From the IMG/VR virus record IMGVR_UViG_2875128709_000003: a stretch of DNA of 64,000 nt; one strand, 5' to 3'. Below, in pieces: positions 42,001-48,000 of this stretch; position 1 is the first letter of the stretch, and each line of letters starts with the position of its first letter. This DNA is from a virus. Taxonomy: Duplodnaviria; Heunggongvirae; Uroviricota; Caudoviricetes. Position numbers: made by a program.

Positions 42001-45000
42001 GGAAGCTAAATATGAAGCTACGATTAAACTAACCGCAATAGGCGAAGTTAAAGATAAAGAGGATTTGATAGATAATCCTAAAGAACAGCTCGATAAGTGT
42101 GTTAAACAAGTTTTAGAAGATGAAATTGGTGGAAAAGTAGATATTAGTATAGATTCAAAATTTAGGGTAGAAGAATAAAGGAGAGACTTGTTATGAAAAA
42201 ATATAAATGTGTAGTACATAGAACAGATGAATATGAAATAGAAATAGATGATAAACAATTGGACGAAAAATGGATGAAAAATTTTAGAGAATGTATGTTT
42301 GATTTTGATACATACGAAGAACATGCAGAACATATAGCACAAATGAGAGCTAGGTTTGGAGAGGGTTTTATAGAGGGATATGGAAATCCTCTAATTGATG
42401 GAGAAAAGCCATGGTTTTGCGATAAAGATGAGGTTAATGAAACAATTAATATCAATGTTGTTAGTGAAGATAGTCCCTATGAAACAGAAGTTGAAGTCGA
42501 AGAAATAGAATAATAAAAGAGGTGTTGGTTATAGAAAACATTAAAATAATATGTACAAACTGTAATGAAAAAGCAGACGTTATGTCTTGTAGAAGAATTA
42601 AAAAGAATGAAGTTTTAATTACCTATATTTGTCCATATTGCGGTAATGGAGATGAAGAAATCCATTATTTATATGAGGATTTATTAAATGAAAGAGAAAA
42701 GCAACTTTTGCACGAAGGAATTGCTTTGCTAATAGAAGAGGTAGAATATCAAGTTGATAAAGGGACAGAAAGTTTGAAAGAATGTAGAAGAAATAAGCTT
42801 AAAGAAATTATTCAATTAAGGAACAAAATATTATAAAATTTTAGTTTTAAACAAATATATTTTGGAGGGAATTTAATGGAAAATCAATTACAAGAAGTTA
42901 AAAATCAATTTACAAAAGATTTATTTGAAAGAATATATCAAGAAATTATAAGGAATGGCAATGAAGACTTGTTTAGTTATTATAACTTAATTATAGCCAA
43001 TTTAGATAAACATGATGACATATTTAAAGATATATTAGAAAATGGATTAGCTTATATTACATATGTAAATGAAGATATGGGATATACTGATGGAGACATT
43101 ATTGTATATTTAAATAATAAAACAGAATATAACATAAAACTTATATGGAAAGAAAATATGATAGGTGATTGTTATGAAAATGAAGAATGTGTTCTTACAC
43201 ATGAATATACAATAACACATATTGTGGAAAAACAAACTATAACAGAAGAAAATACAGATGTTAATATGTTACATAAAATTAAAATAGAAACAGAGAATAA
43301 ACTAAAAAAATTTAGATTACAGCAAAAACTAGAAAAATTAAATCAAATGTTAGAAGAAAGAAACAAATTAGAACTTGATATAGAAGAATTACAAAACGAA
43401 TTAGCACTTGCATCCTAATTAAAAACAATTTAATAAATGAGGAATTTATAAGGCAGGAAAGAACACCCGTGACTTTAGTCATGGGATGAATTTCCTGCAT
43501 ATGATTGTAATATAGTGATAACTAAATTATTAAAACTTCTATTTTGTTTTTTAGCTATCTCTTCTAGTTGCTTTTTCAAATCTTTTGAAATAGTCAATTG
43601 AGTTCTTGTATTATTTATAGAAAGGAAGTGAATATTGTGAAGAAAAATAAAACTCCGAGTTATGTATTAACTCTGTCATTACATACAGAAAAATATCAAG
43701 AAGATATAATTAATAAAAGGTTGGAGATAGCAAGAAATATATCTAATGCCTTAACAGGAAAAGTGTTAAAAAGATATAATCTTATGATGGAATCTAAACT
43801 ATATAAACAAATTAAAAAACAATTAAATCCTATTAATAAAAAATATCATAATTCAGACAATGAAAAGATTAAAAAGTCTTTAGAAAAACAAAGAAAATGG
43901 TTGTATAAACAGCTAGAAGAAGTATGTTTAAAGTATAGTCTATCACAATATTTACTTTATGAAGATATAAAACCTATGTATAAACATTTTAAAAGTAATA
44001 TAAATAGCTTAGAAGCACAAACAATAGCTGATAGAGTATGGAGTAAGTTTGATAGGTTATTACATGGAGATGCTAATAAAGTATATTTTAGTAGATATGG
44101 TCAATATAATTCTATTGAAAATAAGTGGAATAAAAGTGGTTTAAAATATGATAAAGATACAAATACGATTAAATGGAATAAATTAAATATTCCTATAATT
44201 ATTAAAAATAATGACTTGTATGCACAAAAGGCAATTCAAGATAGAGTTAAATACTGTAGAATACTTAGAAAATTAATAAGGGGTAAATATAAATACTACG
44301 TACAATTGATACTGGAAGGAATTCCACCACAAAAGATTAATAAACAAACTGGTGAAATAAAAGGTAGTATAGGTCAAGGAAGTGTAGGAATAGATATAGG
44401 AACTCAAACTATTGCTATATCAAGTAAATATGATGTAAAACTATTGGAGTTATGTCCAAAAATTGAAAATATAGAACATAAAAAAATAATATTGCAAAGA
44501 AAATTAGATAGACAACGTAGAGCTAATAATCTTAATAATTATAATGAAGATGGTACTATAAAAAGAGGAATCAAATTAAAATGGTATAAATCTAATAAAT
44601 ACATTAAAATACAAAATGAATTAAGAGATATACAAAGGAAACAAGCTAGTATCAGAAAACAAAGTCATGAAAAATTGGCTAATTATATAATATCCTTAGG
44701 TAATAGAATTTTAGTTGAAGCTATGAATTATAAAGGTTTGCAAAGAAGAAGTAAGAAAACCACTATTAATAAAAATGGTAAGTATAACAAAAAGAAAAGA
44801 TTTGGCAAGAGTTTAGCAAACAAAGCACCAGCAATGTTAATTGAAATGATTAGTAGAAAACTTAAATATGAGAAATTAGGAATACTAAAGATAGATACTA
44901 AGAAGTGCAAAGCAAGTCAATATAATCATTTCACAGATGAGTATAATAAAAAAGAATTAAAAGATAGATGGAATAGTGATATAAAGATACAAAGAGATAT

Positions 45001-48000
45001 GTATAGTGCATTTTTAATTATGAATGTTACAGGTAAGAAATTAGATAAAATAGATAGAGAAAAATGTATTGAAACTTATAATAATTTTAAAAAATTACAT
45101 GACAAAGAAATAAATAGATTAAAAGAATTAAAGAAAAACGGTATTAAATTAATAAGCAGTATGGGAATATAATTAAATGTTAATAAATATGGTTTTGAAC
45201 CGAGCCGTTATATTATCGTTAATGGACATAATGATGTCTTTGGTAGTAAAAGTCTTATTATAATTAGATGAGTCATTATATGTTGTAAGATATAGGTTAT
45301 CGAAATAATGTAAATCCTATAAATGAGAGTATATTGGAAGTCTAAGGAAATAAGAACCACGCGACTTTAGTCGTGTGAGGTTCAGGAGATATTACCTCAA
45401 TCAACAAAACAAAGTCAAGAAATTGCAGATATACTAAGAAATAATAACCTAGAAGTTTTTACTACAAAAGGATATAATTTTGATGTGGATAAAATATTGA
45501 CTATTAAAGCATTTTCAAATAATAAGCAAGAAAGTATTTTAATAGAGAGTTTAATACCTAAAGACACACCATTTCATGTAGTAGAAATTAAAAAGCAATT
45601 AAATTTAGAATAGAGAGGATTTAATTTATGAAAAACTTTAAAAAAAGAGTAAAAGAATTTGTTCAGGAACACAAACTACAAGAAGTTATAGATAACTATG
45701 ATTTTAAACATAAAGCAAAGGTTTATATTGCATCTGAAGGATTATTTAGTGAATTAGATCAAATAGGATTAGAACTAATAGCTGATATATGTGAACAAGT
45801 TAATTTAGATTATTACTTACCACAACATGCAGATTTTAATAAGAAAGATACAGAAGACTTTACTATAACAGGAGGAATGATAGCAGAAGGAGATAATTCA
45901 CAACTACGAACTTGTAATTTTGTATTAGCACATCTTAAATTGCCATTAGATGAAGGAGTAGGTGGAGAAATAAGTAGATTTAAAACTATGATAGAATATG
46001 AACCTAATAAATATAAAGGTATTGTAGGGTGGGCTGATGACATAAGATTTAAAACTAAACCTAATATTAATCAACCTTCATTTAAAAATCAAGTAGGTTA
46101 TTTAAATCAATACTGCCAAGGAGAAATTGAAAATAGTTTAGGCTGCTATGAAAAACTAGGAGATTGTTTTACAAAACTATGGAAAATTTTTGAAGATAGT
46201 ATAGAAAGCGAGGTATCAGATGACTAAGCAATTAGAAATATATTATGATATGGATGAAGTATTATATGATCTAAGTTCATATATTATAAATAAATATAAT
46301 AAGGATTTTAATGATGATATGAAACCTAATGACAATAAATCATATTGGTGGAGTGATTGTAATAAAGCCAGTAAAGAGTATTTTAAAAATTTATTATTAG
46401 AAAAGGGTGCTTTTTATAAAAGCAGCCCTGTCAATAATTCAATAAATATTGCTACAATATTACATGAAAAAGGCTTTAAAATTAAAATAATAACTTTACC
46501 TCAATACAATTCAGATTATTGTGTTAGTGAAAAAGTTAAATGGATAAAAGAATATTTACCTTTTATAAATGTTGAAAAAGATTTAGTGTTTACTGGAGAT
46601 AAATCATTATTAGCTAGAGATAATCGAGTGTTGCTTGATGACAATATAAACAACTTAATAGAATGGAAAAGAAAAGACGGGATATCTGTAGCTTTTTCTC
46701 AGCATTGGAATGACAAATGGAAAGGGTTAAGAGTAAGTAACCATAAAGAATTTTACACTCTAATTCATCAAATACAAAACAATTTAATAAATAACAATGC
46801 AGAAAAAAGTATAGATTTACACAATTTAAAATTTCATTATGAAAATAAATTACATAAAGGAGAGTGATTAATATAGCTAAACTGCACGTAATATTTGCTT
46901 GTATGGGCGTTGGAAAATCAGAAGACTTAATTAGAGAATATAATTCATATAAACTAAATAAAATGAATGTATTAGCCTTAAAAAGCAGAATAGACACTAG
47001 AGAAGGCATAGAGGAATGTTACATATCTTCAAGGAATGGAAATAAAATTCCTGCACAATGGATTGATACTGATGAAAATATTTTTACAAAAGTAATGGAA
47101 TACATAGATACTGAAGGAAATATTAAAGCAATTATTATAGATGAATGTAATTTTCTTTCAGAAGAACAAATAAACCAAATATCAGATATAGTAGATATTT
47201 TAAATATAGATTGCTACTGTTATTCTTTATTAACTAATTTTAAAGGATATCTATTTAAAGGAAGTAAAAGATTAATAGAATTGGTTGACCATGATTGTAT
47301 TAGATTTATGGTTACTAGAGATAGTGAAGGGAATATACCAAATGTAAATGCAAAAATTTTTAATAATAGAATAATTAAAAATGGAGATGAAATAGAAGTA
47401 GGTGATACTCAATATAAACCAATAACAAGGAAGAATTGGAAACTAGGAATAATTAAATAAATAGCAGGAGGAAAATTAAATGAGATATAAAATGTTATCA
47501 ATATTATTAGTTTTTATTTTATTATCTATACCTTTCGTGAAAGATATAAACATTATCAAAGCTATAGATAATAATTCAACTATTACTCAACAAACAAAGG
47601 AAAACAAACCGCCTAAAAAATTAAAATTATCAGAAGATAAGAAGATACTTGGGGTTTGCAGTGGAATTGCTGAATACTTTAATATTGATCCAGCTTTTAT
47701 TAGGGTTATTTGGGGACTGTTAGCAATTTGTTATGGCGTAGGTATTATAGCTTATTTTATATTTTATTTTGTCATGTTTTAAATTAAATAAATAGACATC
47801 AATTAATAGCTCCTTGATTTTCAGGGAGCTATTCTTATATGCAATAATTTTTAAAAACATTATTTAAAGCTTGACTAATATAAAATAATTTGGTAATATA
47901 GAATCATGAAAGGAGAGAGAAAATATGAATACTTTAATATCAATTTACATAATTTCTTTAATAGGAAGTTTATTGTGTGGTTTATATATGAAACACGATA

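Follow-up and report, generated by a model that had tools for sequence, protein, structure and literature searches.

What is the unit that carries a tnpB gene without a zinc finger in the viral record IMGVR_UViG_2875128709_000003 (Caudoviricetes): a transposon, a gene taken into the service of its replicon, or the remains of an insertion? The stretch analyzed, here called the window, comprises 64,000 nucleotides (nt), and an earlier reading made from it alone (the sequence-only reading) had placed in it, at positions 43445 to 45395 and between phage genes, a TnpB-only element of the IS200/IS605 type. We find that it is very probably a non-autonomous IS200/IS605 insertion sequence of the IS608 or ISCbt1 type. 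Alignment with an element-free sister plasmid (NZ_CP022401.1, locus L005) showed that the element is real and gave it slightly different ends, at positions 43450 and 45385 (1,936 bp): homology between the window and L005 stops at 43449 (after ...GGAATTTAT) and restarts at 45386 (GAGATATTACC...). The right boundary is also exactly where shared sequence gives way to unrelated flanks in four c-st copies and in many other relatives, in each case behind ...TCAG and 8 to 9 nt beyond the hairpin. Three features of the locus go beyond the earlier account, namely a disrupted gene of 164 amino acids (aa), a truncated arc gene on the minus strand, and a replicon that is a plasmid-like phage. The positions of all features are collected in Table 1.

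Table 1. Features of the tnpB element and its flanks (positions refer to the window)
Feature	Position	Strand	Basis
Left-flank target/cleavage motif TTTAT (putative transposon-adjacent motif, TAM)	43445..43449	+	Flanking DNA, outside the element; L005 homology ends at 43449
Left end (LE): 16-nt leader, hairpin, conserved ATGAATTT box	43450..43493	+	Sequence and DNA fold
Putative DNA guide AACA in the LE leader	43462-43465	+	
LE imperfect palindrome CCCGTGAC-TTTA-GTCATGGG	43466-43485	+	
5'-truncated arc gene (RHH_5 repressor homologue), 40 aa from an internal TTG	43475..43597	-	Pfam, homologues
tnpB, 511 aa	43637 (GTG)..45172	+	RuvC D253/E361/D454, no C4 zinc finger
omegaRNA (reRNA) scaffold and right end (RE): helices P1-P5	45173..45385	+	Covariance model
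Box AAGAAC in RE	45352-45357	+	
RE palindrome CACGCGAC-TTTA-GTCGTGTG	45358-45377	+	
Terminal motif TCAG in RE	45382-45385	+	
Predicted omegaRNA guide portion = right flank GAGATATTACCTCAATCAAC	45386..45405	+	Position directly 3' of the scaffold
3' remnant of the disrupted 164-aa gene	45386..45613	+	L005 comparison

We then looked into the ends of the element. The two hairpins that the sequence-only reading had taken for subterminal palindromes are present where it had placed them and as it had described them: in both, the loop is TTTA, stem position 4 is a G.T pair, and an AGGAAA..AAGAAC box precedes the hairpin on its 5' side; the RE contains AAGAACCACGCGACTTTAGTCGTGTGAGGTTCAG. Folded as single-stranded DNA, the LE reaches -5.8 kcal/mol (z = -2.07) and the RE -8.2 kcal/mol (z = -3.8). 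Counting the 10-mer shared by the hairpins within the window is uninformative (2 matches versus 2.4 expected at up to one mismatch, not significant), and the weight of the hairpins comes from the same hairpins, with compensatory changes in their stems, ending dozens of related elements. On the left, the layout of a hairpin followed by ATGAAT recurs in ISCbt1 of phage c-st and in other relatives, with stems that differ and compensate. On the right, a hairpin of at least 6 bp was found in 40 of the 44 distinct terminal segments, with many different stems, followed by 8 to 9 nt that include a ...TCAG-type motif.

The left ends of the relatives read (T/A)TTAC, then 17 to 19 nt up to GAAAG, the hairpin, and ATGAAT. 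Where the putative guide is AAAG, the flank is (T/A)TTAC, while the window element and a relative from Tissierella (L008) have AACA before the hairpin foot and TTTAT as the flank. Guide and flank thus change in step (AAAG with TTAC, AACA with TTAT), such that the change at the fourth position preserves guide-target complementarity. This covariation was read from about 12 clear left ends, only 2 of them of the TTTAT type, because simple regular expressions for the LE failed at many loci. The same logic is known from IS608 of Helicobacter pylori, in which the left guide (GL) is AAAG, the left cleavage site (CL) TTAC lies 19 nt 5' of the hairpin foot, and the right cleavage site (CR) TCAA lies 10 nt 3' of the foot (PMC3201880). 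Both elements have subterminal imperfect palindromes on one strand and cleavage sites that are read, predictably so in the window, by 4-nt DNA guides 5' of the hairpin feet; across the two, the hairpin foot is separated by 16 to 19 nt from the left site, 5' of it, and by 8 to 10 nt from the right site, 3' of it. The IS608 pair of AAAG and TTAC is common to part of the window element's family, whereas the terminal motif is TCAA in IS608 and TCAG here, and the IS608 TnpB belongs to the "typical" clade, usually of 300 to 450 aa, from which the window TnpB differs in type (PMC10691335). We infer that TTTAT, the flank of the insertion, is the TAM of the window element. No target-site duplication was seen in the comparison with L005, at a site that is also short of 279 bp.

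Those 279 bp belong to a gene, and the element does not lie between phage genes, as had been thought, but interrupts one. L005, which is element-free, carries an intact 164-aa open reading frame (ORF; L005 1457-1951), a putative membrane-protein gene, between a 180-aa gene and a nucleoside 2-deoxyribosyltransferase gene. The window is without the first 279 bp of this gene and has the element in their place, and a 42-aa ORF annotated at 45485-45613 is the tail of the disrupted gene. When L005 1440-1740 is set against the window flanks (43430-43449 and 45386 onward), each break point in the intact allele is seen to lie between ATTTAT and G. The loss and the insertion may have come about by a microhomology deletion that preceded the insertion, by recombination between two copies, or by an adjacent deletion made by TnpA at a second TTTAT; as to the order of deletion and insertion, all three scenarios fit the structure equally. 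The donor joint of the window flanks would be GGAATTTAT followed by GAGATATT. The element is dispensable, as the element-free relative shows.

An element that sits in sense orientation inside a gene could be an IStron, a composite of a group I intron and an IS605/IS607 element that splices out of the mRNA of the interrupted gene, and IStrons are known in Clostridium and Clostridioides. This is extremely improbable here: the Rfam scan contradicts it, with no group I intron in 43000-46000 (E <= 1) or in the whole window (gathering score), only about 170 nt separate the LE from tnpB, and joining the flanks leaves the 164-aa reading frame unrestored.

We then analyzed the TnpB protein. A TTG at 43598 lies upstream of the position at which the homologues start, and the GTG was taken as the start codon. 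An identical protein is listed at NCBI as "RNA-guided endonuclease TnpB family protein". The window TnpB matches NCBIfam guided_TnpB (NF040570) over nearly its full length (E = 3.8e-15) and PHROG 506, "transposase" (E = 3.9e-44). Its AlphaFold2 model (71 diverse homologues; pLDDT 95, pTM 0.88) had as best Foldseek matches, all with probability 1.0 and E values from 2e-12 to 1e-10, Cas12p, the ISFba1 TnpB, Cas12m2, the ISDra2 TnpB, and Cas12f, and the TnpB structures 8iaz, 8h1j, and 8exa gave TM scores, normalized to the target, of 0.67 to 0.72. The three RuvC motifs in which intact acidic residues had been noticed (GIDIGTQ, VEAM, and RDMYSAF) correspond to D253, E361, and D454, and they are kept in 64 to 66 of the 71 diverse homologues (D454, in QRDMYSAF, in 66). 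The protein thus has the TnpB fold and the D-E-D triad, and it is predicted to be an active nuclease.

The C4 zinc finger, on the other hand, is absent, as the sequence-only reading had recognized. Between RuvC-II and RuvC-III, a CxxC is missing from all 71 homologues. In the window TnpB, residues 421-452 stand in the place of the zinc ribbon, and the only Cys there, C424, is not conserved among the homologues. In a PDB profile alignment to the solved Cas12n, the RuvC motifs align to those of Cas12n and TnpB, and SQYNH...QRDLYSA stands opposite SSQTCSECG...CAYCG..DRDLNAA, so that the four zinc ligands are replaced or deleted and the surrounding motif survives. Since the finger is missing in all 71 members, its loss characterizes the family as a whole and is no peculiarity of the window element. 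Nor is such a loss unusual, as had been supposed: it was published in 2023 for large TnpB branches by Altae-Tran et al. (PMC10691335), which makes the absence of the finger compatible with TnpB membership. According to the same work, the major TnpB clades other than RIIIr-4 keep the C4 finger. The finger-less branches of that work, RIIIr-4 among them, resemble the window family in having no C4 finger between RuvC-II and RuvC-III and in being enriched on viruses, but RIIIr-4 is described with a His in place of the RuvC-III Asp that the window family keeps, and we rejected the RIIIr-4 label on this ground. The zinc-finger-less family may represent a naturally zinc-independent scaffold with full nuclease activity, and if its members are active nucleases, the C4 finger is dispensable for TnpB function.

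An omegaRNA had been expected 3' of tnpB, and the evidence for it is of several kinds. The 213 nt from the tnpB stop codon to the right boundary are conserved across the family, and RNAalifold, run on a MAFFT alignment, gave 25 pairs, 16 of them with compensatory changes. The covariance model built from this alignment has a single match in the window, which covers the whole region and extends across all model positions (1-205; 163 bits, E = 6e-32), and exactly one match directly 3' of each family tnpB, including loci outside model building. In the model-fitted alignment of 52 distinct sequences, 97.2% of the cells pair (71.5% in shuffles), double changes occur in 20 of the 25 pairs, and the covariation score is 0.655, compared with at most 0.10 when the partners are slid by 1 to 3 columns; this alignment leans towards the structure, and the MAFFT-based result agrees with it. 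A conserved, structured RNA that ends exactly at the transposon boundary points to an omegaRNA scaffold, and on this comparative sequence evidence we consider that the 3' region of tnpB is one. Rfam, searched with 43000-46000 at E <= 1 and with the whole window at the gathering score, returned no family, and it holds no curated omegaRNA model that covers this TnpB family. In the Clostridioides phage CD1801 (MW512570.1), positions 2618-2817 match only window 45092-45300 (76.7% identity) and carry no annotated feature; the match spans the 3' end of tnpB and the omegaRNA region, and it could stem from an orphan omegaRNA or from a partial element.

The position of the scaffold also allowed us to predict a target. 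In the element-free allele of L005, TTTAT is followed by GAGATATTACCACAATCAAC, which amounts to a TAM next to a 19/20 match to the predicted guide, with the mismatch at position 12. The element-free allele is therefore a predicted target of the window TnpB.

We then examined the family to which the element belongs. Its ORF and 3' region match, at about 70% nucleotide identity, ISCbt1 of phage c-st, and the "transposase" genes of phiCD211, D-1873, and Geobacillus virus E3 were also matched. In c-st, the homologous OrfB directly follows OrfA, a Y1 transposase of 133 aa (Pfam Y1_Tnp, E = 1.7e-38), and a Y1 tnpA adjoins the homologous tnpB in 45 of the 75 related loci fetched, the rest being TnpB only. 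This pairing of the same OrfB with a Y1 TnpA bears out the assignment to the IS200/IS605 family, and, as tnpA occurs in relatives and not here, it makes the window copy a non-autonomous family member. The window holds one tnpB of this family. Elsewhere, a word-indexed search gave more than 4,800 matches, the family comprises at least 2,393 clusters at 50% identity (E <= 1e-3), and an alignment-based scan of IMG/VR found 72 family loci in viral contigs, including c-st, phiCD211, D-1873, and Geobacillus E3. Members are common in phages and phage-plasmids, and a TnpB of this kind on a phage is not the rarity it had seemed; the window element is an ordinary member of a large known family. Taken alone, it is a correctly recognized case of something very common and matters little. 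Its modest value is that of an illustration: for a zinc-finger-less TnpB family, comparing sequences is enough to read off the ends and DNA guides, the TAM, and the omegaRNA with its guide.

The closest well-described relative is ISCbt1 (OrfA CST007 and OrfB CST008), whose OrfB is 65% identical to the window TnpB over the full length. The two elements share an LE hairpin with a TTTA loop followed by ATGAATTT, an RE consisting of AAGAAC, a hairpin and AGNNTCAG, a homologous omegaRNA, and a location on a large plasmid-like phage of C. botulinum. They differ in that ISCbt1 has a Y1 tnpA, several copies, an (A/T)TTAC flank, and the guide AAAG, whereas the window element has no tnpA, an arc remnant, the guide AACA, and a TTTAT flank.

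The arc remnant sits between the LE hairpin and tnpB, with its stop codon in the loop of the hairpin. Pfam matches it weakly (RHH_5, E = 3.2e-5; RHH_1, E = 0.0018), and one NCBI record lists it as a "DNA-binding protein" (WP_208459983.1). A chance ORF is ruled out by its 214 homologues of conserved length (nearly all 51 aa, starting MTISKDNTRTQ), and an intact gene is ruled out by the alignment, in which the start is lost. In close relatives of the window element, arc homologues lie divergently beside tnpB; the module is intact in two loci (L091 and L095), and the intergenic region of L095 holds a TTGACA-17-TATAAT promoter. Compared with these two loci, about 41 nt or more are deleted in the window, a stretch that takes in the start codon (ATG) and ribosome-binding site of arc as well as the DNA between arc and tnpB. 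Arc proteins of IS605-family elements, one of them from C. botulinum, have been reported to act as repressors of the element's bidirectional promoter (Moon et al., bioRxiv 10.64898/2026.09.24.754181). In such Arc-containing elements, a small RHH gene divergent from tnpB represses the intergenic promoter, and this is exactly the arrangement of the close relatives, whereas the window copy has neither an intact divergent arc nor the intergenic promoter. With start codon, ribosome-binding site, and promoter lost, the arc regulatory module is probably defunct. The tnpB gene points the same way as its neighbors and is therefore probably transcribed by read-through, the likeliest source of its expression.

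The arc genes of other elements were also recorded. Metagenome contigs L084-L090 encode a 51-aa Arc/RHH_5 protein (P0295), 80% identical to the window remnant, which lies, in six different contexts, divergently from an unrelated canonical zinc-ribbon TnpB of 413 aa (PF01385 and PF07282). In L091-L096, related Arc proteins adjoin zinc-finger-less TnpBs of 507 to 510 aa. It seems, then, that elements whose TnpBs are of unrelated types have an arc/left-end module in common.

From the biology of the family, we propose how the element would work. A Y1 HUH transposase acting in trans would bind both subterminal hairpins on the top strand, and the 4 nt 5' of each hairpin foot (AACA at the LE, GAAC at the RE) would guide cleavage 3' of the flanking TTTAT on the left and 3' of the terminal TCAG on the right. 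Transposition would then proceed through a single-stranded circle, with insertion 3' of a TTTAT elsewhere. Having lost its own arc-controlled promoter, tnpB would be transcribed by read-through from the flanking phage genes, and the 3' untranslated region of the transcript would fold into the omegaRNA scaffold, with the flank from 45386 supplying the guide. The TnpB-omegaRNA complex would cut any site made of TTTAT and GAGATATTACC..., be it the excised donor joint or an element-free sister replicon, and recombinational repair from the occupied copy would restore the element (homing, retention), as has been shown for ISGst and ISDra2 elements. A known parallel is ISGst2 of Geobacillus stearothermophilus, for whose TnpB2 Meers et al. 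reported TTTAT as a working TAM. It resembles the window element in element type, in the TAM predicted here, and in the proposed mechanism, in which TnpB-omegaRNA cuts the donor joint and the element is retained; this activity has been shown for ISGst2 and is predicted for the window element.

Several points weigh against a transposon of this kind, and some of them touch what the sequence-only reading had proposed as checks. The TnpB profile NF040570 scored 56.1 bits against a curated cut-off of 100, and Pfam OrfB_IS605 and OrfB_Zn_ribbon gave no match to the 511-aa ORF, so that the TnpB identity was drawn from NCBIfam, PHROGs, structure, and context; of the profile and structure check, the TnpB fold and the missing finger were confirmed and the Pfam match failed to appear. 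The lack of a Pfam model and the score below the NCBIfam cut-off also account for the name "hypothetical" in RefSeq plasmid records. No cleavage assay of any member of this zinc-finger-less family was found in the literature consulted. The search for an empty site in relatives did yield L005, but not a clean empty site, as the 279 bp of the host gene are absent from the window too, and similarity to L005 is far lower in the left flank than in the right one. The native tnpB promoter region is deleted, and the region holds about as many promoter-like matches as chance would give (21, with 19.6 expected). No tnpA was found in the element or in the window, which bears out the description as a TnpB-only copy. 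Finally, the identical protein occurs in a single genomic context in all contigs examined, with one copy in the window, and there is thus no sign of recent movement of the exact copy.

The unmatched OrfB models, together with the missing zinc finger, would also fit a nuclease-dead repressor of the TldR type or an ordinary phage protein flanked by regulatory hairpins. Such an interpretation can hardly be right: it is contradicted by the D-E-D triad, conserved across the family, and by a protein of full length through RuvC-III, the family is associated with Y1 TnpA, the hairpins mark transposon ends across many unrelated flanks, and no terminator-like sites were found.

The single copy and the losses bear on two further explanations. 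The TnpB could be immobilized and co-opted, as a homing or exclusion nuclease against replicons with the uninterrupted allele or as a regulator. Such a role would agree with a single copy in a fixed context on several plasmids at 100% identity, with the missing tnpA, with a tnpB that is co-oriented with phage genes after deletion of arc and the native promoter, and with the 19/20 guide match beside TTTAT in the sister plasmid. We nevertheless regard it as unlikely. Homing and retention are already the normal role of TnpB in a transposon, so that these data do not separate co-option from a non-autonomous insertion sequence; the LE and RE are intact and family-typical, which keeps the element mobilizable in principle; and the element-free relative speaks for an element that can be dispensed with. 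We consider it very unlikely that the insertion is a dead, decaying relic with a non-functional TnpB and RNA. The 5' truncation of arc, the deleted promoter region, the absence of tnpA and of a second copy, and the 279 bp missing from the adjacent host DNA would all suit decay, but the 511-aa ORF is full length with its catalytic triad intact, the omegaRNA matches the entire covariance model (163 bits), and both ends are complete. We therefore retain the non-autonomous insertion sequence, and infer that it could still be mobilized today.

A bolder proposal, separate from that of a zinc-independent, active TnpB family and like it held to be quite unlikely, is that the phage-plasmid keeps its promoter-less, arc-less, and TnpA-less element as a TnpB-omegaRNA weapon between sister replicons. 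If this were true, the guide would be hard-wired to the uninterrupted allele of the sister plasmid (TTTAT followed by GAGATATTACC[A/T]CAATCAAC), and a co-resident or super-infecting relative would be cut and then converted or excluded.

The replicon itself differs from the lytic-type phage that had been assumed. The window is 100% identical to circular C. botulinum plasmids of about 200 kb in the plasmid collection (e.g., pRSJ2_2 and pNPD1_1), and a megablast of 20 kb of the window against the phage collection gave no nucleotide match. Its large ORFs match the phage families DnaB, RecJ, DNA polymerase, exonuclease V, NrdD, and topoisomerase II, and the window covers the replication and nucleotide-metabolism module of the replicon, which elsewhere encodes a tail tape-measure protein, an antirepressor, and ParB. 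These genes mark it as a phage-like plasmid; it was deposited as a circular plasmid, and nothing points to a lytic lifestyle.

Other observations concern the same plasmid. A second, different gene, whose product is annotated as an RNA-guided endonuclease of the TnpB family (WP_051498566.1), lies outside the window, at NZ_CP013709.1 118926-120119 (L097 1-120). Within the window, a phage DNA polymerase gene (17630-23029) is divided: the ORF at 17630-19144 matches phrog_405 positions 32-440, and the one at 20396-23029 matches positions 446-1092. The 1.25 kb between them contain a 274-aa ORF (19362-20186) with a GIY-YIG-like N terminus, and Rfam at the gathering score found no group I intron at this split. 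A 566-aa ORF (5904-7604) matches phrog_4538 in two stretches, and its middle (about aa 247-445) is an HNH/homing-endonuclease-like segment that may be an inserted endonuclease domain. Lastly, an NrdD-like ORF (35063-36994) matches positions 1-338 of a 978-position NrdD family, and its residues 333-639 match other NrdD families, so this gene may be split or mosaic.

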